This document shows, piece after piece, positions 3,101 through 61,434 of a stretch of 61,434 bases of DNA. The position numbers and the translations under genes are program-made. This stretch comes from Candidatus Levybacteria bacterium RIFCSPHIGHO2_01_FULL_38_26 (GTDB lineage Bacteria; Patescibacteriota; Microgenomatia; Levybacterales; UBA12049), in NCBI GenBank assembly GCA_001782075.1, contig MFNO01000037.1:1-61434 (forward strand), in the 5' to 3' direction. The first letter of the stretch is position 1. Each line of letters opens with the position of its first letter. The notes below the pieces were generated by a model that saw only the letters and a program-made list of their open reading frames with translations, was not told where the DNA came from and searched no databases.

Positions 3101-3994
3101 TTTGCTATGGATTGTACCAAGTGGACAACTGAATTTGAGCTGTCAGAAGATGTTACGCTTGAATCAAAGGACGGTGCGTCGCAGACTGTAAAGGTGCCAT
3201 CAGTAGTACTAAATGCCATAACAACACCGGGTGCCATAATGTATTTTAATGAAATGAATGCGATGACTGAGCAGGCGCAAATATTTCTGCATGGTCTTAT
3301 GGATGAGAAAAGGACTTTGACTTTAAAGACAAGTTCTGGAAAGTCAGTAAAAGCGGATAAGGATGTTTTGCTGATAGGTTCAATGAATCCTGATTATCCA
3401 GGTACCTTTGCGCCTCAATTTGCAACAAGAGGAAGAATGGTTGAATTGGATATTGAATACCCCCCGCTTTATGGAGAAAGAGATCAGGGTGATACAAATC
3501 CGAATCGGCCTTTTAACTCTGCTGAGCCTTTGAGAATCGCAAGATCGGTAGACTCTTTATCTGATTTTACATATGAATCAAATCCTGAGTACAACGATTT
3601 TGTAAAGATTTGGGATAAAGAGGTGAATGGAGTCCAAAATGACGCGCCGGATCTGAATCCAACACAAAAATTTGATCTTGAAGTTATTCTCGCGCTTACT
3701 CAATTCGGAGACAAACTTCGAGAAGGATTTATGTTGAAATTTGATAAAGCGCGTGTTTCTGCGACTAGAGGGAATCTTTTGGTTAGTCAGCCGATATCAG
3801 GTAGGGAAATGAGGAGGTGCGCTTATATCCTTAGTAAAATGCCGGATGATCAAAAAGCAACAGCAGATCCTGAAGGAGTCGCAAGAGAATTGCTTGAGAA
3901 ATATTTCTTGACACATATTGACAATAGAGAGGAAAGAGGGCAGGTAAGAACTGCAATGGCTACTTGGACATCATCAAAAAGACCGGCTGCTTAA
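128..3994 (+). CDS. giant (1288 aa) protein with an unassigned N-terminal ~960 aa and a C-terminal AAA+ ATPase of the AAA_5 / MoxR / CbbQ-NorQ class
   Basis: Walker A GHTGTGKD (nt 3035-3058). Walker B-like IMYFNEMN (nt 3236-3259). The segment LLIGSMNPDYPGTFAPQFATRGRM aligns in my reading with the CbbQ/NorQ sensor region (SYNPGYQ...STRQRF). AGGAG RBS upstream. No signal peptide or TM segment is seen. Confidence 0.75.
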   Translation: MEQPMQQERDNQQKAQSSGEGESSLPELKLTERLKSSAPLVRLPQNIEFSPEKAIIQPYGEYTVVLGQGGNQIGVIDSQGRKIDELTNTEVLIADWRDLRRNSSGGYYGDLTTGQGDYYSKNVSGLPARLRPYAEEMIRQNGGKNILIPQQTWRLDTQDIGSIKTITIGDKYVLFVDKEGLIAFQAKNEQGVNLPPRNWKRLDSLDSWINKVPPEIRIAVNNSRIEGLKSFIPDSERGFGVNVHENDVKIVKFGNQPDSELFTDRIRGVDTNLCRDPINKKVYYYCQSNNADTLIKLDTTLDDSSTWQTESAEFPQKYENISNLQLDPSGNFFMFQSGDSYVFLDKNTLQEAKKLPKFYNVKVDSEGRLRGIDARGHLVIYDANFQEVAQAAEKARVARFAQGLAAGLFKKEGEAAPAKIDVDQFQHLVPAKTDFETQFNNQLQTINNLDNISDINQALNRLKSRLSGEGLKPDQIDFITGGIADSIRDKEVTLAAPVIENDITSLDTKLSSGNLTLASIAEARADLAELKSLEGLADENTRSKITALESRLGEQSAELFRTQGAVVVEQANGLVSGVRNELEQMTSMPAFADFQEYRLPQLLSRLGSLANECPLEASDIQSAILSARRQIQDLSRQYENTFKEHYAQVRERASEVMGERVELLRTDVDSFLARLRGRGFKDRTQAETYMRSSESLGLLRTEIEEMTRQNPDISHELDRYLKVQIANIMSEVERGGLSTVAETGQQMELFGKTLFLKWEGHVKEKTQKKVDLIFMAEERTKGPGIPPDQIYGDVGLSVINSRGEMEKIRLYEGWEKEDAVRYGIEPSVPPSYVNYAEFGKIRKDYNDWKLGENSEIRKGLDDKGNEVREIRRKLREAKGNSQEEETLRGEYKKALDDYLGFYGERHLSILHRVDRIKNAPESEYENGKGFVPEWESHWVVDNQTEKYLENMAGSLKMQIDLQADILNLKGHTGTGKDLLVKMFANRTNRPYFAMDCTKWTTEFELSEDVTLESKDGASQTVKVPSVVLNAITTPGAIMYFNEMNAMTEQAQIFLHGLMDEKRTLTLKTSSGKSVKADKDVLLIGSMNPDYPGTFAPQFATRGRMVELDIEYPPLYGERDQGDTNPNRPFNSAEPLRIARSVDSLSDFTYESNPEYNDFVKIWDKEVNGVQNDAPDLNPTQKFDLEVILALTQFGDKLREGFMLKFDKARVSATRGNLLVSQPISGREMRRCAYILSKMPDDQKATADPEGVARELLEKYFLTHIDNREERGQVRTAMATWTSSKRPAA

Positions 3995-4015
3995 TATTAG
4001 TTAAGAGGTTTAGAT

Positions 4016-7000
4016 ATGGATATGGATAAAGAAAGAGAGCCACAAAAACCTCCGCAAATAGATAAGTTTGCCCGCGAAAAAGTTTTTCTGGCAGGTCAGG
4101 CCTCAGAAGGAGGATTAAAAGTTTTGCCCGGCAAATCATGGTCTTTCCACTACCCAAATGGAGGAGAAGCAAAAAATGCGGCAATTTCCGGTTTGTTGTC
4201 CGGAGAAAAGAAACCTATCGATGTTACGGAGGATTTGAAGCCGGATGTGCTGATTTATGATGTTTCTACTCTTGAACAAGAAGGATTGCAATCGGTTGCC
4301 GGAAAAGTAAGAGATGTTTCTTCGTACGTTGCCCAATACGATTATCCAAGATTTGCTCAATTCGTATCACAGATGCACGGTACTGAGGTTACTCCTGATA
4401 CTGTTCAGGCTATTTATGATGGGATTGCTCAAAGTAGAATTCGTAAAAAAATGATTGACGCGTATGGTTTTACAGGTAGAAAACAGATAGAAGATGTGTT
4501 AAGGAGTGAGGCGGCAAGAACAGTTCAGCATATTGGGAGTCTTCCCAGAGTCCAAAAAGTATTGGAAGCTCTAAAAATGAATTGGCTGGCTGAAGATTTA
4601 CAACTTGCAAGAACAGAGCAGCGAGATCAAGTGATAGTTGAGCTTTCAGATGAAGAAAAAGAGCTTTATGGTCGGCTTAAAGAGCATTATCTAAATTACG
4701 TCAGAAGAGGAGATGAATCCGCTTATGAGGGTTTGGCAGGAGGAATTAAAGAAAATATTCCAAAGATTCAAAAAGAAGAAGAGCGAGCTGCTGATGAAAG
4801 TATGGAGAAGCTTGAACAGGAATTAGAAGAGTATAAGGATGAGGCTGTTCCTCCTGTGACACCGGGTGATCCTGCAATTCCACCTGATGATTCTGATGAA
4901 TATCACACGCCTCAAGTATCTCCATGGGAATCTAAGGAACAAGCAGCAGCGAGACCATATTTTGAAATAACGCCAAGCGGGTCAAGCACTAAACCGCTGA
5001 TAGGATATTATGCTTCGGGGCGAAAAAGTTACTATGATATTGAATCAAAAACATGGAGCAAGAAGAAACAGGTCTCATCATACAGCAAAGATATATCTAG
5101 CTCTGAAAGACAAACGATTTCCGGCACTACTGGTGGAGGATTAAAGTCTATTCCAATTCCTAACGGTTATGGACTGGCTGTGTCGTCTATTAAATTTAAC
5201 GGATCAAAACCAGAAATTTCGCGAGATCAAAATGGATGTTTTTACATTAATACGAGTGGTAACTGCAATTTTGAAGTAGATTTTTTGAAAGAAGATCCGA
5301 TTTTCGTTGGTTCTCCTGTAGAGAAAGATTCAGAAGAAATTTATAGAGGTGAATTGTCAACAGAGACAGAAGATGTGATCAGAAATGCGTCAGGAGGGTC
5401 GTTGGAAAAAGCAGAAACACTTCGTAATTACTTACTTTCCAAGCATTACTATCCGGGTGACGGGGATCTTAAAATGGCTCAGGCTCTGCAGTTGAAGCTT
5501 AGGAGAGATTCGACAGGAGATAATTACATCCAAAATCTTGATAAAAGTGAATATCTAGAGTGTTATTCGGCAAACACACTTTATATAGCCATGCTTAGGA
5601 AAGCTGGGATTTCATCGAGATTGGTCCTTGGCCATAGAGTCGAAAAAGCAATCGAAGGTAAAGCAACAATTGATTCAACGACCGGTCATGCGTGGTCAGA
5701 GGTTTGGGACGGATCAGCTTGGAGAAGGATGGATGCGACGCCCAAGCCAAAGCAACAAAAGCAAGATCAGGATCTGGATCAAACTACGCCTTCAGAGGAG
5801 GCAGAAGATAATGGAATAAATAGATCCTTCGACGAAGCTCAGGATAAACAAGATCGGGGGGGTCAAGATGAACAAGGTGAGTCACATTTTGATCAGGGTA
5901 ATAGATCTACGGACCCTTTGCAAATGGAAGAGGCCTCAGATCAGGATGTCTCACAAGGTGAGTCCGATCTGTCAAACGCTCAAGAATTTTCCGATAAGGT
6001 AAATAAAGAAAAACATTCTCTTGATCAACAGGTTCAGGATTCCCTTTCTTTCAAAGACTTGCAAAAGTTAGAACAAGATACTCAGGAATCTGATTTGTTT
6101 GATGATATGAAGGAGGATCTTCAGAAAAAGCTGGAATCAAAAGAGGAGCAAATGAAAGAGGAGATGAAAAAAAATCTTGATGAGATGGTTGAGGATGGAT
6201 TTTTGGATGAGGAGAGAAGGCAAGAACTTGAAGACCAGATCAACGAAAAGCTCCTAGAAGAATTAGATAGTCTTAAGCAGCAAATAGAGAAAGAAAACGT
6301 CATGTTTAGCGAGTACCAAGATATTAAAGAAGAAGTAATGCCGTTGGTTGATAATTGGTTTGAATATTTCGTTGAGAGACTTCCAAGACAAGAGGAGGTT
6401 GAATTGGATGAAGATTCTCTAACTCGCCAAGGCGCTTTTAATAGACATTCCGTCATGAAGCCAAGAAACTTACTTTTTGGAACTGTTAAAAACCCTCGTA
6501 TCATCAAACCATCTATTAAGCCGAAATTTTTAGCTGAAGCAGTTGTTGATGTAAGCGGATCAATGGCTGGAGAAAAACTTAATAGAGCAAGAAAGCTACT
6601 TGTCTTTTACAATGAACTTTTCTCAAGAATTGGCGATGAGTTTGGTTATATCAGATACGCAAATACTGTTTTTTCCGACACTGTAAAAGAGATAAAAACA
6701 TATGATCAGGAATATGATAGTCCAATAAGATATGATTGGGGTGACGGAGCCAAGTCGACTGTTAAGGTTCGATTGATGGAGTCGCTTATTGCAGGAGGAG
6801 GGACAGATATGCTTCCTGCTATCAAGAAAGCAGCCGGAGAATTAAATAAAGAGACTTTTGAATATCCTGATTATGCATCAGCGCTATATTTTATTGGTGA
6901 CGGAGGAGATACATCAGGAAATGCTCAGAGAATTAAAGAGTTTTTAAGGATAAACGAAGCAGAACATGGATTTGGAGAGCACATGCTGTCGGCAATAATG

Positions 7001-8669: not shown

Positions 8670-8966
8670 ATGCTTGAAGGAGAAAAAGCAACTGACCCGC
8701 AAGAAGCAGCAAGATTAGAAAATCAAATTTTGCAAACCAAAAAGATGATGGAATTGGTTAGGATTCGGATCATTCAGTCTCCTTACTTTTCGTATACTGA
8801 GCTCTTTCAGGACCCAAATGGTGGTTTTGAGGAAAGGATAATTGACGTGAAAGATTTAGACGTACTAGTTCATACTTATTTAAAATTAATAGATAATCAA
8901 AATGAAGCAAATAGAAATAGAAACGCAATTGGAACAGAAAAAGTTTTGTTTACAAAAAATTCTTAG
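8670..8966 (+). CDS. hypothetical protein (98 aa)
   Basis: ORF only. No motif recognised. Confidence 0.3.
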   Translation: MLEGEKATDPQEAARLENQILQTKKMMELVRIRIIQSPYFSYTELFQDPNGGFEERIIDVKDLDVLVHTYLKLIDNQNEANRNRNAIGTEKVLFTKNS

Positions 8967-8972
8967 CGTAGC

Positions 8973-11468
8973 TTAGAGTTCTTCCAATGCCTGCTGGATT
9001 TTTTCGGTTGCCTCTTTATAGCTGATAGTTTTGGAAAAGGTTAGGGGCTTGCCTATTTTTACCCAAACTTTTTGTCTTTTTTTGGGTATATTTTCCCAAA
9101 ACCCGCCTATTGGAGGGAAAATTTCTCGGTAGGCTGGGTCAATTTTGATTGGAATTACTGGGACTTGCATTTCAACGGTCATAAACCCAATCCCTTCTTT
9201 AAATTTTAGTAGATTTCCGTCTTTGCTGAAAGTTCCCTCAGGAGCAAGGAGGATTGAATACCCTTTGTCTAGAAATTCTCCGGTTAGTTCAAGTGACGCT
9301 TTTATTCTTTTTTTCTTATCAAAAGGAAAACCGCCTCCCAAAAGCTGCACAAAGTTTTCGCGGTAATCGAGCCAAATGTCTGAGTTGACAGCAATGACTA
9401 GTTTTTCTCTAATTTTGCTAGGAAGGCTGCGTAATACACAAGCTCCATCCATGACTCCTATGTGATTGAAGTAAAAAATTGCCGGAAGATTTATGTTTTT
9501 TAAATTTTCCTTTCCTTCAATACTCATAGGCACAAAAAGCGAATGGATAGGGAATGTGAAGCAGTTTTGTAAAAAAGTTCTTAATTTCGCGGCTTTTGGG
9601 CTATATATCCATTCTGAAATTGGGATCTCCTCTGCAGATGATGGAGCAACTTTAATGAGTTTTCTTAAATCACCGACGGTCGTTTGTGGGTTTATTTTAG
9701 TTTCTGAAATTGCTACTATATACTCTTGTTCTATCAAAGATAAAATTTCAACTCTTTGCAAAGAATCGAGTTTTAGATCTGTAGCCAAGGTGGAAGTCTC
9801 TTTGATTTTTGTAGTAGGTAGCTTGGCTACTTGAGATATAAGGTTTATTAGCTTATCTTGAGGTTGTATTCCTTTTGTCAGGGGATCCTTCGACTTCCCT
9901 TGGACAAACTCGGGGTTGCTCAGGGTGACTTGCGTCACTTTTTTTCTATCTATTTTAAGTATCGGCGTCCTGGGAAAGTCCTCGCCTTGCCACAGACTGT
10001 ATTCAAGTATTTGCTCATGAGAAGCGAGTTTTTGATTTGTGTCCTTTATGATTTTGGAAAGTTTGTTGGGGAATTTGGTAATAATTACCGCATGAACTGT
10101 CTCTCCTTCTTCATTTTTAACTCCAACTATGCATGATTCAATGACGAGAGGGTGAGCGTTTAATTTTTTTTCTATGTCTTCAGGATAAACTTTTTGCCCA
10201 TTAGGAAGAACAATTCTGAATGCGACTCTCCCCGTTATGTATACGAAACCATCATTATCTATTTTTCCTACATCTCCTGTATGATACCACCCGTCAACAA
10301 AAGCGGAATTTGTTTTTTCTTTGTCTTGAAAATACCCGGAAGAAATATTGGGTCCTTTCGCTAAAATTTCTTGTGATTTATCGTCTATTTTTATAGATAC
10401 TCCTGGCAGGGGTTTTCCAACCGATCCTAATTTTTTTTGAAAAGGAGTATTGATCGTCAAGACCGCGGTAGTTTCTGTCGCGCCGTATCCTTCAAATATA
10501 CTAACTCCCAAATTTTCCCATTTTTTCACTAACTTCAAATTAAGCGGTGCTGATCCGCAGCCAAAAAACAAAAGGCTGGGACCAATTTTGTCAAGGACTG
10601 GTTTAAAAATAATTCTTCTAGCCCAAAATGGAAGATTTTCAGATATACTGTTTAACATTTTCCAGGTCTTTTGTTTGTTTTCTTTCTCAACTTCGGCTTC
10701 AATTCCTCTCATTAATAGCTGCAGCGCTTGAGGTACGAGAGCAACGGAAGTGATTTTATTTTTTCTCAACGCTTTTGCTAGAGTGATTCTGTTAATTCTT
10801 TCCAAATAAGTTACCTTGATGCCTGTTTTGAATGGTACAAGAAAATCAACAAGCTGCTCAAAAACGTGGGAAAGCGGAAGTAGAGATAGTGCTTTGTATT
10901 GACTCTTGAAAGGGAAAGCTTCGGTTAGTGCATCAATGTTTGATAGAAAATTCGCGTGTGTCAAAACCACGCCTTTTGGAGTACCAGTTGTTCCCGAAGT
11001 GAAGGCAATTTCAGCAAGGTGATTTGTGTTTATATTGGAGGGAGCGGATAGGAGGGGGAAATTTTTTACCAACTCAGTTAAATCCTCCAAATAAAAACTC
11101 TGTTTTAATAGCTTGCCAAAAGTTCCAGGAATAAATTTGCCTTTGAATCCTACTTTGCAGGATGCTTTTGTCAAAAAAATTTTCAAAGTTTCATCTGTCG
11201 TTCGAATATCAATGGGGACAGCTATCGCTCCAATATTCCAGCAGGCAAAGAAAAATATGGCGTATTCAGGCATGTTTGACGACCATATCGCGACTTTATC
11301 ATCTTTTTTAACTCCATTGTGAGCAAGAAAAGCAGACGTTTTTAAGACAAGATCATGAACTTCCTCGAAAGTAAATCGTTGCGTCCTAAATCCTCGTTTT
11401 ATTTCATAGGCGATTCTATTTTTGTGAATCCCCGAGTATTCTTTCAGAAACTGTCCTAGGTTTTGCAT
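8973..11468 (-). CDS. three-domain fusion: ANL-superfamily acyl-AMP/acyl-ACP ligase, acyl carrier (PP-binding) domain, and PlsC-type lysophospholipid acyltransferase
   Basis: AMP-binding motifs FTSGTTGTPKGV, GYGATE and YHTGDVG. Carrier motif DLKLDSLQRVE. Acyltransferase motifs NHIGVMD (HX4D) and LAPEGT. I place the start at ATG 11468 (MQNLGQ...), 7 nt after the upstream stop. The ORF-track start at 11549 would overlap the upstream gene by 74 nt. Confidence 0.85.
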   Translation of the reverse strand: MQNLGQFLKEYSGIHKNRIAYEIKRGFRTQRFTFEEVHDLVLKTSAFLAHNGVKKDDKVAIWSSNMPEYAIFFFACWNIGAIAVPIDIRTTDETLKIFLTKASCKVGFKGKFIPGTFGKLLKQSFYLEDLTELVKNFPLLSAPSNINTNHLAEIAFTSGTTGTPKGVVLTHANFLSNIDALTEAFPFKSQYKALSLLPLSHVFEQLVDFLVPFKTGIKVTYLERINRITLAKALRKNKITSVALVPQALQLLMRGIEAEVEKENKQKTWKMLNSISENLPFWARRIIFKPVLDKIGPSLLFFGCGSAPLNLKLVKKWENLGVSIFEGYGATETTAVLTINTPFQKKLGSVGKPLPGVSIKIDDKSQEILAKGPNISSGYFQDKEKTNSAFVDGWYHTGDVGKIDNDGFVYITGRVAFRIVLPNGQKVYPEDIEKKLNAHPLVIESCIVGVKNEEGETVHAVIITKFPNKLSKIIKDTNQKLASHEQILEYSLWQGEDFPRTPILKIDRKKVTQVTLSNPEFVQGKSKDPLTKGIQPQDKLINLISQVAKLPTTKIKETSTLATDLKLDSLQRVEILSLIEQEYIVAISETKINPQTTVGDLRKLIKVAPSSAEEIPISEWIYSPKAAKLRTFLQNCFTFPIHSLFVPMSIEGKENLKNINLPAIFYFNHIGVMDGACVLRSLPSKIREKLVIAVNSDIWLDYRENFVQLLGGGFPFDKKKRIKASLELTGEFLDKGYSILLAPEGTFSKDGNLLKFKEGIGFMTVEMQVPVIPIKIDPAYREIFPPIGGFWENIPKKRQKVWVKIGKPLTFSKTISYKEATEKIQQALEEL

Positions 11469-25123: not shown

Positions 25124-25153
25124 ATTTGAAATCGGACTCGTGGTTCAGTGGTA

Positions 25154-25256
25154 GACCCGCCTGCACTGGCCGATTGGCTCAGTTGGTTAGAGCGCTTCAT
25201 TCACATTGAAGAGGCCGGAGGTTCGAATCCTCCATCGGCCACAGTTATGGCGGGCA
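25154..25256 (+). other. intervening sequence in the tRNA-Thr D-loop: GA-CCCGCC-TGCACT-[tRNA-Val]-CAGTTAT-GGCGGG-CA
   Basis: A 6-bp GC clamp (25156-25161 with 25249-25254) encloses the nested tRNA. Confidence 0.6.
25168..25241 (+). tRNA. tRNA-Val(CAC), canonical 74-nt cloverleaf nested inside the tRNA-Thr gene
   Basis: GGCCGAT TG GCTC AGTTGGTTA GAGC G CTTCA TTCACAT TGAAG AGGCC GGAGG TTCGAAT CCTCC ATCGGCC A. Confidence 0.9.
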
Positions 25257-25313
25257 GGACGTCTCGTTCGTATCGAGAAGGTCGAAGGTTCGATCCCTTC
25301 CGAGTCCACCGCG

Positions 25314-36454: not shown

Positions 36455-37656
36455 AGATACTGACTGCGGTTCTAATTTTGCTGTTTCCGCTTGGAGAATT
36501 GGGTCGTTTTAATATCTATAATGAAATTTTCACAACACTAAATGATATTTTGGTTGGAGTAGTTGTGATTTATTGGTTGATTTTAATAGTTTGGAAAAAT
36601 AAATTGACAGAACTCTCAAAAAAAAAATTATCAAAACCTATTTTAATCTTCATTTTTATTGCTTTTTTATCGTTAATGCTAAATTATCTTAATCTCAAGA
36701 CGGAAGAATTAATCGGCTCATTTTTGTATATTTTACGTTTTGCTGCTTATGTGTCTTTGTATTTTGTAGTAAGCTCATTTGGTCATGATTTTAGAAAAAA
36801 AATTATCTATTTGATGATAGTTTCTGGTGCTTTAGTTATATTGGGAGGTTTTGTTCAGTATTTTTTATACTCTAATCTTGGTAACTTGTACTACTTAGGT
36901 TGGGACGAGCATCTCTATCGGTTATTTTCAAGCTTTCTGGATCCAAATTTTGCTGCATCTATTATTTCATTGTTTTTGACTCTTGTTCTATCAATATTAT
37001 TTTTCAAATTAGAAAAAAGCAAAAAAATCCGATTAGCACTAGTTTTATTATCTGTCTTGGCCTTCACTGCTTTGCTTCTGACCTACTCAAGAAGCGGTTA
37101 TCTGATGGCTATCACAAGCGTACTGGTGCTGCTGTTTTTGCTTGGTAAGAAAAAACATATTGTTATTTTGTTTGCTATTTTTATTTTGGGAATAGTATTT
37201 ATCCCAAAAGACTTTGGTGGAGAGGGTGTCAGGCTGTTAAGAACTGCGTCATTAGTTTCAAGATTTGAGTATTTAGACAACGCCGTAACAATATTTAAAG
37301 ATAATCCAATTTTTGGCGTTGGATTTAACGCATACAGATATGCTCAGTATAGATATGGATTTCTCGACGGTGACAGTTTGCGAACTAGCCATTCTGGTGC
37401 GGGGACTGATAATAGCCTCTTATTTGTTTTGGCAACAACTGGGATTATTGGGTTTGCTTCCTATTTGTATATCTGGTTTAGGGTTATAAAAAATCATTCC
37501 AGTGTGCAGAATAATAGATACCAAAGGATGATATCTGTGGCTGTTGTTGCCTCAATTGTAGGACTTTTTGTCAATGCTCTTTTCATTAATAGTCTTTCTT
37601 ATCCTTTTGTTATGGAGTGGATGTGGATTCTGATAGGAATTAGGGAGAGTAAGTAA
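36442..37656 (+). CDS. O-antigen ligase / Wzy_C-domain membrane protein
   Basis: LLTYSRSGYLM and RTSHSGAGTDNSLL motifs in a ~10-TM protein. GTG start overlaps the upstream stop. Confidence 0.75.
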   Translation: MALLKILTAVLILLFPLGELGRFNIYNEIFTTLNDILVGVVVIYWLILIVWKNKLTELSKKKLSKPILIFIFIAFLSLMLNYLNLKTEELIGSFLYILRFAAYVSLYFVVSSFGHDFRKKIIYLMIVSGALVILGGFVQYFLYSNLGNLYYLGWDEHLYRLFSSFLDPNFAASIISLFLTLVLSILFFKLEKSKKIRLALVLLSVLAFTALLLTYSRSGYLMAITSVLVLLFLLGKKKHIVILFAIFILGIVFIPKDFGGEGVRLLRTASLVSRFEYLDNAVTIFKDNPIFGVGFNAYRYAQYRYGFLDGDSLRTSHSGAGTDNSLLFVLATTGIIGFASYLYIWFRVIKNHSSVQNNRYQRMISVAVVASIVGLFVNALFINSLSYPFVMEWMWILIGIRESK

Positions 37657-38356
37657 CTGAAAGTTTTTTTTCTGTTTTGTTTCCAGCTCGGTCAGCAGCC
37701 TCTATTTTTATTTCGTTCAATCCTTCTTTTAACATCAAATTGTATGAAAAGTTGTTTTCCTCATCTATTACCGCCCAAAAACCGTTTATTGTTACTCTTA
37801 CCTGAGGATCTGTTTTTCCCTTAACTTCAGCTATGTTTTGGTCTTTTGAATAGGAGTCATTGTTTGATGGACTGGATACCTCAAGGGTTGGAGGAGTACT
37901 TTTGAAAACAATTATTAAATTTTGGGAAAATTCACTTTCTTTACCTTCGGGATTAACTGCTTTGGCTTTAACAATATTCTCATCTCTTGAAAGGGCAATT
38001 TCTGAGGAGAAATTTCCATCCTCACCTGCTGAAATCTTATCGGCAATATTCCCGTTTACGTAAACAACAACTGTATTTTTAGCCAGAGTTGATCCTTTTA
38101 TCGTGGTGGTGGCGCTATTTGTTGCCATATCTTGGGTGGTAAATATAGGAGCAGGGATAAATGTAGTTTGATTCGTGTTTTTTGACTCCTGGTTTGCTCT
38201 GGAACCCGATATAAAAAGGCTGAAGTTAACCAGAAGGGGGATTCCAAATTTAACCAAAAGAAAAATCACTGCGATTATCCCTAAGATACTCCAGAACAAA
38301 TTTACTAGCGACTTTTTCGCCTGTCTTTTAGTAAGCCTTGATCTATTCATATGCAT
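37640..38356 (-). CDS. membrane-anchored extracytoplasmic protein with two Ig-like (Big-type) repeats
   Basis: N-terminal TM helix. Two ~80-aa beta-rich repeats (VVVYVNG...AKAVNPEG and VRVTINGF...IEAADRAGN). ATG at 38356, 3 nt after the tRNA-Thr 3' end. Confidence 0.5.
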   Translation of the reverse strand: MHMNRSRLTKRQAKKSLVNLFWSILGIIAVIFLLVKFGIPLLVNFSLFISGSRANQESKNTNQTTFIPAPIFTTQDMATNSATTTIKGSTLAKNTVVVYVNGNIADKISAGEDGNFSSEIALSRDENIVKAKAVNPEGKESEFSQNLIIVFKSTPPTLEVSSPSNNDSYSKDQNIAEVKGKTDPQVRVTINGFWAVIDEENNFSYNLMLKEGLNEIKIEAADRAGNKTEKKLSVTYSP

Positions 38357-38359
38357 CGG

Positions 38360-38431
38360 AGCCAACGGTGAGAATCGAACTCACGGCCTAGTGTTTACGA
38401 AACACTTGCTCTTCCACTGAGCTACGTTGGC
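38360..38431 (-). tRNA. tRNA-Thr(CGU), canonical 72 nt
   Basis: Reverse complement reads GCCAACG TA GCTC AGTGGAA GAGC A AGTGT TTCGTAA ACACT AGGCC GTGAG TTCGATT CTCAC CGTTGGC T. Confidence 0.9.
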
Positions 38432-38524
38432 AAGAAGCCGCTGCTTTTCCACGCTTGTCTCGCTACGCTCGCAAGTGAGCTCGCTGCGGCTCAGCGGGAC
38501 TCCACTCCACTAAGCTATATCGGC
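38432..38524 (-). other. orphan tRNA-Thr-like 5' fragment (GCCGATATAGCTTAGTGGA, 38506-38524) followed by a GC-rich structured spacer closed by CCGCTG/CAGCGG (38438-38497)
   Basis: Read directly on the minus strand. A possible promoter (TGGACG-N16-TATAAT, roughly 38534-38561) would start transcription just before the fragment. Confidence 0.5.
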
Positions 38525-38547
38525 GGTTACTGTGATTATACATTATT

Positions 38548-39195
38548 TTACTTATTCGTCCATACGTGGGGATTGTGAAACCAGAGGTCAATGCTTTTTT
38601 TCTCTTTTTCGGTTATTATTCCCTGTCTTAAGGCTTCGTCTGCAATATATTTGCCTGTAGTGAGGGAATATACAGTTATTCCATTTTCTTCAAGCAATTT
38701 TTTTGTTTCTTTCGAATTATAGATGGTAGTTGTAATACAGTATTTTACTCTGCCGCCTGAAGCTCGAATAGTTTGAGCGTTGTTCGCAACGCTTGTAGCT
38801 GTTGAAATATGATCTTCTATGATGACTACGTCTGATCCTGGTTTTAAGTATCCTTCGAGCTTATTGCCTTTTCCATACGATTTAGTGGAAGGTCTTACAT
38901 ATACCATTGGGAGGTTTAATTTGTCCGATACAAACGCGGCTTGAGGAATGGCAGCTGTCGCGGTGCCAGAGATATAGTCGACATTAGCAAGCCCTATATG
39001 GTTTTTGATAATCGAAACGTAGAACCCGATAATTTTTCCTCTTTCTTTTGGATATGACATTGTGATTCTGTTGTCAAGGTATATCGGGCTTTTTAGACCG
39101 CTCGTGAATACAAATGGAGGATCAAACCTGAACGTTACAGCATTTATTTCAAGCAATGTTTTTGCAGTCTCTTTTTTGTATAAATCTTTGTTCAT
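38548..39195 (-). CDS. pyrE: orotate phosphoribosyltransferase
   Basis: PRPP-binding motif VVIIEDHISTATS. Confidence 0.9.
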   Translation of the reverse strand: MNKDLYKKETAKTLLEINAVTFRFDPPFVFTSGLKSPIYLDNRITMSYPKERGKIIGFYVSIIKNHIGLANVDYISGTATAAIPQAAFVSDKLNLPMVYVRPSTKSYGKGNKLEGYLKPGSDVVIIEDHISTATSVANNAQTIRASGGRVKYCITTTIYNSKETKKLLEENGITVYSLTTGKYIADEALRQGIITEKEKKSIDLWFHNPHVWTNK

Positions 39196-60982: not shown

Positions 60983-61054
60983 GCGGGTGTGGTTTAGTGG
61001 TAAAATGCTTCCTTCCCAAGGAAGAGATTGTGGGTTCGATTCCCATCACCCGCT
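60983..61054 (+). tRNA. tRNA-Gly(CCC)
   Basis: GCGGGTG TG GTTT AGTGGTA AAAT G CTTCC TTCCCAA GGAAG AGATT GTGGG TTCGATT CCCAT CACCCGC T. Confidence 0.9.
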
Positions 61055-61240
61055 CTTTTTTGTTTCACAAAAAAAGCGAGGCTCGCCTCTGAGGACACAA
61101 GGATCATTTGGTATGCTTATTTTACCACTTCTTGGTATACTTAAGCCATGAAATTAACCAATTATCCAAAAGTTGATGAAGCCATAAAGAAATTGATACT
61201 TTTGAGATAGTCTTTAAAATCTTCGAGTCATCGTGCTCAA

Positions 61241-61283
61241 ACCCGCCTGCAAGCGCCTGGAACGCTAGCGACTGGCGGGCAGG
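61241..61283. repeat. GC-rich bipartite element ACCCGCCTGCA-N21-TGGCGGGCAGG, with both 11-nt arms identical to the flanks of the tRNA-Thr D-loop insert
   Basis: 61241-61251 equals 25155-25165, and 61273-61283 equals 25248-25258. An inner hairpin is AGCG CCTGGAA CGCT. Confidence 0.8.
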
Positions 61284-61315
61284 TAGGTCCGAGCTGATTA
61301 CGGTAACCCGCTCAT

Positions 61316-61434
61316 TTATCTTTTCTCAAAAAGCACGGTTTCTCCTCTGAGGACTTTTTGGACATCTGTCTCAGTAACCGATCTAGAAGTTTTTACGGAA
61401 GTTACTCTAACAGCAGGGTTTTCTCCGATTGCTT
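61316..61434 (-). CDS. 3' end of an unidentified CDS running off the window (...AIGENPAVRVTSVKTSRSVTETDVQKVLRGETVLFEKR*)
   Basis: Open frame to the window edge with a TAA stop at 61316-61318. No family recognised. Confidence 0.35.
   Translation of the reverse strand, partial: AIGENPAVRVTSVKTSRSVTETDVQKVLRGETVLFEKR

Follow-up and report, generated by a model that had tools for sequence, protein, structure and literature searches.

A displaced tRNA-Thr(CGU) 5' half with a GC-rich D-loop insert, probably left by allele replacement, in a Levybacteria contig

Introduction

In Candidatus Levybacteria bacterium RIFCSPHIGHO2_01_FULL_38_26, an intact tRNA-Thr(CGU) gene is preceded by a stretch that begins like a second tRNA-Thr gene and then runs into DNA rich in guanine plus cytosine (GC). 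What is this fragment, how did it come to lie between the gene and its promoter, and does it have a function of its own? We addressed these questions in positions 1 to 61,434 of contig MFNO01000037.1, a stretch hereafter called the window. An initial annotation had described a tRNA-Thr 5' fragment that breaks off at the D-loop and had read it as a replacement 5' half brought in by an insertion into the intact gene. We find instead that the minus-strand segment 38524-38434 is the displaced 5' half (tRNA positions 1 to 34) of a different tRNA-Thr(CGU) allele, which is broken in the anticodon loop and which carries a 53-nt insert in its D-loop. We think it fairly probable that this remnant is the nonfunctional scar of a tRNA-Thr(CGU) allele replacement, and that it also records the insertion of a hairpin into a D-loop.

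Results

The fragment is a tRNA 5' half broken in the anticodon loop

The resemblance to a tRNA starts with the 19-mer GCCGATATAGCTTAGTGGA (38524-38506, minus strand), hereafter part A, in which 15 of the 19 nucleotides agree with the 5' end of the live gene. When the upstream regions of ~113 distinct tRNA-Thr(CGU) loci from metagenomes were scored, a value of at least 15 was obtained only at the window locus and at neighboring genuine tRNA genes, and the control regions (downstream DNA and the reverse strand of the upstream DNA) reached it once in ~215. The 5' fragment is therefore real and lies where the initial annotation had placed it.

Its supposed end at the D-loop did not stand up. We built a position-weight matrix from 40 distinct tRNA-Thr(CGU) 5' halves and took 5000 dinucleotide shuffles as the null. 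The best match in the DNA between part A and the live gene was 38452-38434 (P = 0.0008 for tRNA positions 15 to 34 and P = 0.003 for positions 15 to 26), where the tRNA sequence resumes and continues to the true break in the anticodon loop. Comparison of GTGGAAAAGCA in the remnant with GTGGAAGAGCA in the live gene revealed a sole mismatch, G22->A, which restores pairing with the C13->T change of the remnant and yields a D-stem GCTT/AAGC in place of GCTC/GAGC. This compensated 13-22 pair indicates that part A and the resumed portion, part B, once belonged to a single working tRNA. That former allele had the acceptor strand GCCGATA, the D-stem GCTT/AAGC, and the anticodon stem GCGGC. No matching 3' half (TATCGGC after a T-loop), as a split tRNA would have, occurs anywhere in the window, and the remnant was detected by neither Rfam nor ARAGORN, as expected of half a gene.

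Overall, the remnant differs from the live gene at ~9 of 34 positions, paired changes included, and shares GCTT and GCGG[C/T] with an allele type that is intact in L050 (fetched loci are designated by L numbers). The two copies are therefore diverged alleles and not the products of a fresh self-duplication. The ~26% divergence has left the U13-A22 pairing in place, and GCGGC is typical of the other allele class (L050 and L061), whereas random drift would keep neither tRNA-like pairing nor a foreign-class stem; in this AT-rich genome, drift would also lower the GC content, not raise it. For these reasons we judge it very unlikely that the live gene duplicated its own 5' half in tandem, by slippage or unequal crossing-over, and that the copy then drifted and later grew a hairpin in its D-loop, although such an origin would fit two copies of the same type, in the same orientation and 2 nt apart, and although the remnant of another locus (L120) equals its live gene over 13 nt.

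The live gene is a single unit

The live tRNA-Thr(CGU) gene (38431-38360) scores 70.9 bits against Rfam RF00005, for which the gathering threshold is 29 bits. It is identical at 69 of 72 positions to the syntenic tRNA of L149, with which it has the acceptor pair set GCCAACG/CGTTGGC in common, and its anticodon arm equals that of L049. With its perfect acceptor stem and this degree of identity, the live gene therefore looks like one coevolved unit and not like a chimera.

The initial annotation had proposed that a mobile segment entered the D-loop and brought along a 74-nt spacer and a new 19-nt 5' end, which would make the live tRNA chimeric. Several observations are in line with such an event: the remnant lies at the canonical distance from the native promoter, GTGGA repeats stand on either side of the insert, D-loop insertions are found at other tRNA loci, and the orphan 5' end joined to the live 3' part still folds as a tRNA. 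In that fold the orphan acceptor strand forms 6 of the 7 possible pairs with the 3' strand of the intact gene, including two G-U pairs, exactly as first counted, but the seventh is an A7-C66 mismatch, whereas the live gene's own 5' and 3' strands are perfectly complementary; the chimera would, in addition, require removal of the live gene's own 5' half. Furthermore, since the tRNA sequence of the remnant resumes after 53 nt and reaches C34, its junction with the live gene is the anticodon loop, and the remnant owns its D-stem 3' strand, AAGC, so that it has no need of a strand from the live gene. Together with the near identity to the L149 gene, these features speak against a 5' half replaced at the D-loop and make a chimeric live tRNA highly improbable.

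The remnant is derived, lineage specific, and fixed

Synteny provides the ancestral arrangement. Across contigs of Microgenomates, the order of tRNA-Thr(CGU), a membrane protein gene with Ig-like domains, and a convergent Wzy gene is kept, and pyrF and pyrE often precede it. In the window, the minus strand carries pyrF, pyrE, a promoter-like site, the remnant, tRNA-Thr(CGU), and the Ig-like membrane protein gene, after which comes a convergent Wzy-like gene (Table 1). In relatives, an uninterrupted gene was found at the same syntenic position in seven loci (L046, L053, L049, L149, L084, L086, and L070), each of which has a single uninterrupted tRNA-Thr(CGU) gene 8 to 15 nt past the -10 box. 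The remnant and its insert are therefore derived and specific to the lineage of the window. L046 represents the closest lineage in databases (pyrE 76% identical), and its -10 box directly follows the pyrE stop, as it does in the window; the remnant therefore lies at the expected start of the gene. In agreement with the initial annotation, TGGACG-N16-TATAAT, located before the orphan fragment, was the only promoter-like site within 38250-38700. A pyrE scan of more distant GTDB genomes found no tRNA beside pyrE and hence no comparators.

At least eight independent assemblies (ENA, JGI, and Logan; different samples and pipelines) agree at every base of the locus, and the same structure is present in a strain whose pyrE is 1% different. 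It is therefore neither an assembly artifact nor a rare variant, and the remnant structure is fixed in the population. The population inhabits groundwater, mainly that of the Rifle aquifer, whose sample sets contain contigs identical to the window, and the closest pyrE homologues are Roizmanbacteria proteins.

The other side of the tRNA gene also varies among relatives. Between tRNA-Thr and the next gene, three loci have a GC-richer, hairpin-rich noncoding stretch of 90 to 170 nt (L046, 1596-1685; L156, minus strand, 4530-4656; L120, minus strand, 10253-10419) where other relatives have 3 to 20 nt, and these stretches are mutually dissimilar. In the L050 lineage alone, a gene for a 301-amino-acid protein (3461-4366, minus strand) separates the tRNA-Thr region from the gene for the Ig-like protein and adjoins a decayed tRNA-like hairpin that ends in TTCGAATCCCACCTTCGGCTCA. 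This protein has no Pfam, PHROG, or NCBIfam match and hence offers no evidence of being an integrase.

Table 1. Features of the tRNA-Thr(CGU) locus and its flanks, with coordinates in the window
Feature	Position	Strand	Basis
pyrE (orotate phosphoribosyltransferase), upstream syntenic anchor	38548..39195	-	
Promoter-like site TGGACG-N16-TATAAT; -10 box touches the pyrE stop, 10 nt 5' of the remnant	38535..38562	-	
Remnant part A, tRNA positions 1-20: acceptor 5' strand GCCGATA, U8 A9, D-stem GCTT, D-loop AGTGGA	38506..38524	-	
53-nt insert within the remnant D-loop, 66% GC, imperfect hairpin GUC.CGCUG...UAGCG.GAC	38453..38505	-	
Remnant part B, GTGGAAAAGCAGCGGCTTC: D-loop remainder, AAGC, A26, GCGGC, U32 U33 C34	38434..38452	-	Position-weight matrix
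TT linker (2 nt) from remnant to live gene	38432..38433	-	
Intact tRNA-Thr(CGU), 7/7 acceptor stem GCCAACG/CGTTGGC; CCA not fully encoded	38360..38431	-	
Membrane protein gene with Ig-like domains; begins 9 nt past the tRNA; syntenic anchor common to relatives	37640..38350	-	

The D-loop insert is GC rich, and the spacer folds no better than expected

The 74-nt spacer between part A and the live gene contains 62% GC, compared with 37% for the window, which bears out its description as GC rich, and it falls within one of the two GC-richest 60-nt stretches of the window. The structure that had been read into it fared less well. The stability of the whole spacer is at the level of shuffled sequence (z = -0.07), the 53-nt insert by itself gives an imperfect hairpin of -20.3 kcal/mol (z = -1.5), and the helix CCGCTG/CAGCGG that was thought to close the spacer overlaps the tRNA-derived part B. 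Direct repeats of GTGGA flank the insert, the same pentamer being present a third time, and the insert contains the 11-mer GTCCCGCTGAG.

Over 38200-38800, Rfam models gave no match up to E = 10 besides the tRNA itself and noise, so that this check, which the initial annotation had also suggested, turned up no unrelated RNA family, be it a group I intron, a T-box, or another. No second copy of the spacer was found in the window, the fetched loci, viral contigs, or phage records, the phage matches being due to chance. By inspection, neither the predicted fold of the insert nor that of the insert together with the D-arm contained a bulge-helix-bulge motif (3-4-3 geometry). We also asked whether templated repair had assembled the spacer from pieces of the adjacent tRNA, copied in direct or inverted orientation, but the result was not significant.

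The lack of an Rfam match, of excess folding stability, and of insert conservation between lineages supports an absence of function. The structure is, moreover, missing from the nearest syntenic relatives, and L074, a locus with the same layout, does not conserve the pairing between remnant and live 3' strand. It thus appears very unlikely that the remnant is a functional leader controlling the processing or stability of the tRNA or the downstream gene, or that its hairpin is an intervening sequence or a mobile mini-element in a working system to which the remnant belongs, even though the repetition of the layout in L074, the 11-mer found again in the insert of L170, the enrichment of GC hairpins near tRNA genes in contigs of the candidate phyla radiation (CPR), and a GC content high against the background all speak for such a role.

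Comparable scars and hairpins lie at other tRNA loci

In L074, TCCGGCG, UA, GCUC, and AGUUGGCA are followed by a 40-nt hairpin, by GAGC, A, UCGCU, and UUCG, and, after 28 nt, by a live tRNA-Thr gene. This is the layout of the window (5' half, D-loop hairpin, break after UUCG, live gene) at a different syntenic locus. In L170, an independent CPR contig, a TATAAT box precedes an orphan tRNA-Gln(CUG) 5' part (5296-5360) in which a 30-nt CCCGCC..GGCGGG hairpin stands after G19 of the D-loop and is followed by the D-stem 3' strand; the live tRNA-Gln gene (5532-5603) lies 234 nt farther downstream. The insert of L170 has GTCCCGCTGAG in common with that of the window, and these are the only two occurrences in the 2.1 Mb searched. 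L120 retains 13 of 13 nt of the 5' end, next to which come a hairpin and a decayed D-loop, and L050 is a weaker case of D-loop hairpin insertion.

The L074 region also has structure of its own kind: between 8380 and 8750 (minus strand), the live tRNA-Thr(CGU) gene tops the long-range flank helices UCGCUUUCG/CGAAAGCGA and GGGUCCCUCG/CGAGGGAUCC, which sit behind the 5' half with its D-loop hairpin and are followed by ~180 nt of hairpin-rich noncoding DNA. This region had no Rfam match.

The other tRNA-Thr gene of the window, locus 1 (25134-25308, plus strand), had been described as interrupted, and it is: removal of a CCCGCC...GGCGGG block that contains a tRNA-Val leaves a perfect tRNA-Thr(cgt) cloverleaf. 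When all GC-footed hairpins were deleted in silico from 432 kb of CPR-like DNA and ARAGORN was applied, locus 1 was the only complete interrupted tRNA. Two syntenic relatives of locus 1 (order ParB, S26 signal peptidase, tRNA, GT4 glycosyltransferase), L176 (1395-1640) and L178 (1380-1500), have an unwrapped tRNA-Val(CAC) right after the homologous promoter; in the window, a perfect tRNA-Thr(CGU)-like gene, divided in two, encloses this tRNA-Val. The enclosure is therefore derived, unless it was lost twice. The trailer of L176 matches the outer 3' half of locus 1 at 13 of 14 positions (P = 0.04).

Scars were also found on the 3' side of tRNA genes. In L086 (minus strand), an orphan 3' half of the L050 type, AAACCGCAGGTTATCGGTTCATGCTCGATCGTAGGTTC, lies 7 nt downstream of tRNA-Thr 8766-8838 (z = 14); it begins at the 3' side of the anticodon loop, and the live gene is of another allele type. 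In the window, the segment of tRNA-Gly(CCC) from the T-loop to the 3' end is repeated together with a 42-nt trailer (61038-61099, plus strand) 256 nt downstream (61294-61355), the copies being ~75% identical (z = 10), which makes this the second tRNA scar of the window, here on the 3' side. Candidate 3' remnants at L120 and L050 were not significant (P = 0.28) and marginal (P = 0.02), respectively. Between the tRNA-Gly copies lies a hairpin (61242-61279) with the feet CCCGCCTGCA and GGCGGGCAGG, the 10-mers that close the tRNA-Val insertion of locus 1. These feet thus stand at two tRNA loci of the window other than that of the remnant, which bears on whether the 53-nt insert is akin to repetitive extragenic palindromes or miniature inverted-repeat transposable elements; past the feet, the flanks of the 61242 hairpin are not similar to the outer tRNA of locus 1.

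Two freshwater contigs of high GC content, L091 and L128, have a promoter followed by a tRNA-Thr(CGU) 5' half in several copies, 1 to 3 kb apart. These halves end just past the anticodon loop and resemble tandem islands of the rare 5'-fragment class.

The initial annotation had suggested a recurrent insertion or recombination targeted at the D-loop of tRNA-Thr genes. Recurrence is borne out by the GC-rich hairpins in the D-loops of locus 1, L074, L170, and L120. Targeting confined to tRNA-Thr or to the D-loop is not, in view of the tRNA-Gly 3' duplicate, the L086 3' half that begins in the anticodon loop, and the tRNA-Gln remnant of L170.

Most of the D-loop hairpins sit at or near position 20, in the part of the D-loop that is naturally variable in length. 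In 448 kb of CPR-like DNA, hairpins with all-GC feet are ~6 times denser within 200 nt of tRNA genes (5 there versus 25 elsewhere), a ratio based on small counts and on loci gathered around tRNA-Thr genes, hence on a biased sample. We see no similarity among the inserts of the window, L050, and L074 (z ~0), and those of different lineages do not align overall. We regard as possible, but unlikely, a Microgenomates family of small noncoding GC-rich palindromes that insert preferentially into this variable pocket of the D-loop (~position 20). Some of the genes struck by such elements would be tolerated as tRNAs with expanded D-loops, as at locus 1, which hosts a whole tRNA-Val; others would be disabled and replaced by an incoming allele, and their 5' halves with hairpins would remain, as in the window, L074, L170, and L120.

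Discussion

A probable allele-replacement scar

Allele replacement would account for the remnant as follows. The resident tRNA-Thr(CGU) allele would have carried the 53-nt GC-rich hairpin in its D-loop, and a complete foreign allele (GCCAACG..AGTGT..CGTTGGC) from a related strain would have recombined in, being joined by homology downstream and, in the anticodon loop, by an illegitimate or site-specific event. Neither the former promoter nor the former 5' half would have been exchanged, the new gene beginning 2 nt past the break. The native promoter would then give rise to a single transcript starting a few nucleotides before the remnant, from which RNase P, cutting at 38431, would free a leader of ~96 nt that presumably has no function of its own. 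A tRNA-Thr isoacceptor with U34 can read ACG by the wobble rules. The C34 tRNA-Thr is accordingly expected to be dispensable where the U34 isoacceptor is present, which would explain why such events are tolerated; the U34 isoacceptor would have to be encoded outside the window. Similar replacement scars appear in L086, as a mirror-image 3' half, in L120 and L074, and at the tRNA-Gly gene of the window.

Alternatively, an integrase might have inserted a genomic island or prophage at the anticodon loop of tRNA-Thr(CGU). The island would have brought a 5' copy of the tRNA and would later have been deleted almost entirely, so that just this displaced fragment remained beside the regenerated gene. 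A break in the anticodon loop and a displaced 5' fragment each belong to known classes of integration (PMC4383910), and the arrays of 5' halves broken in the anticodon loop on L091 and L128 fit this picture. At our locus, however, remnant and gene are a mere 2 nt apart, with neither integrase nor cargo; no identical core repeat is present either, since the two copies share just UUC at the break and the adjoining stems differ (GCGGC versus AGTGT). Moreover, a deletion that ends exactly at the start of a tRNA is improbable, and such a deletion would be needed again in L074, L086, and L120, with their gaps of 7 to 30 nt. We therefore consider an integrase origin quite unlikely. Because island, integrase, and identical core are lacking and the gap is only 2 nt, homology-facilitated illegitimate recombination, or a similar kind of repair, is the mechanism that we favor for the allele replacement.

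Some observations weigh against this account. The databases contain no lineage between the window (pyrE 99 to 100%) and L046 (76%), so that the event can be neither dated nor polarized directly, and the choice of the original resident allele follows from position and parsimony, which is short of proof. The GC richness of the insert within a 37% GC genome could reflect selection for structure. Finally, the layout of L074, the 11-mer present in L170, and the ~6-fold excess of hairpins hint at a systematic element or at a function and not at random scars.

Displaced fragments of tRNA genes (tDNAs) are already known. What is unusual here is a 5' half that is free of an island, its D-loop insert, and the recurrence of such structures in CPR lineages; in the literature that we searched, neither D-loop insertions nor nested tRNAs are described for CPR bacteria. 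GC-rich hairpins accompany short scars at three of the five tRNA loci of the window (tRNA-Thr, nested tRNA-Thr/tRNA-Val, and tRNA-Gly) and on several related contigs, and genes for C34 tRNAs therefore resemble recombination or insertion hot spots in these tiny genomes. For annotation, this means that a tRNA-like scrap beside a tRNA gene of a CPR genome is best interpreted as a displaced half, and that the live tRNA-Thr described here probably has an unusually long leader. If an element that targets the D-loop did exist, it would represent a new target site for tRNA-directed mobile DNA, beyond the three recognized subsites, and it might explain odd tRNA gene calls in CPR genomes.

Comparison with known systems

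Disrupted tRNA genes of archaea and algae include noncanonical D-arm introns with bulge-helix-bulge motifs, split tRNAs, and permuted tRNAs (PMC3241643, PMC3978253, and PMC3728597). With these cases, our locus has in common a helix-forming insert in the D-loop, and a nested or split appearance is seen also at locus 1 of the window. It differs from them in its bacterial host and in predicted folds devoid of a bulge-helix-bulge; moreover, the downstream gene is complete and needs no splicing, and the remnant is without a 3' half.

In plastid genomes, tRNA pseudogene fragments are found at the endpoints of rearrangements. They resemble the remnant as short partial tRNA copies left by illegitimate recombination between or within tRNA genes, but plastids are another genetic system, and at the window locus synteny is intact, with no inversion or large rearrangement.

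Displaced tDNA fragments reportedly accompany the integration sites of genomic islands and prophages, an observation that is said to go back to Reiter in 1989 and Williams in 2002. Among the islands cataloged by Islander, 5' tDNA fragments form a minority class (159 of 3919), and the recognized crossover subsites are the anticodon loop, the T loop, and the T/acceptor junction (PMC4383910). Like these islands, our locus has a fragment of the same tDNA beside an intact copy and a crossover in the anticodon loop, given that the remnant ends with U32 U33 C34. Unlike them, it holds no integrase or island DNA in its 2-nt gap, the only additional DNA being the 53-nt noncoding insert inside the remnant; it also lacks an identical core and has the extra hairpin in the D-loop.

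Homology-facilitated illegitimate recombination upon uptake of foreign DNA is known from work on Acinetobacter and Streptococcus. It combines one homologous and one illegitimate join and leaves a partial duplicate of the recipient sequence beside the incoming allele, which is the arrangement seen here. Judged by anatomy, the likeness suggests a process of this kind, which would account for the diverged copies, for the short junction, and for the mirror-image scar of L086.

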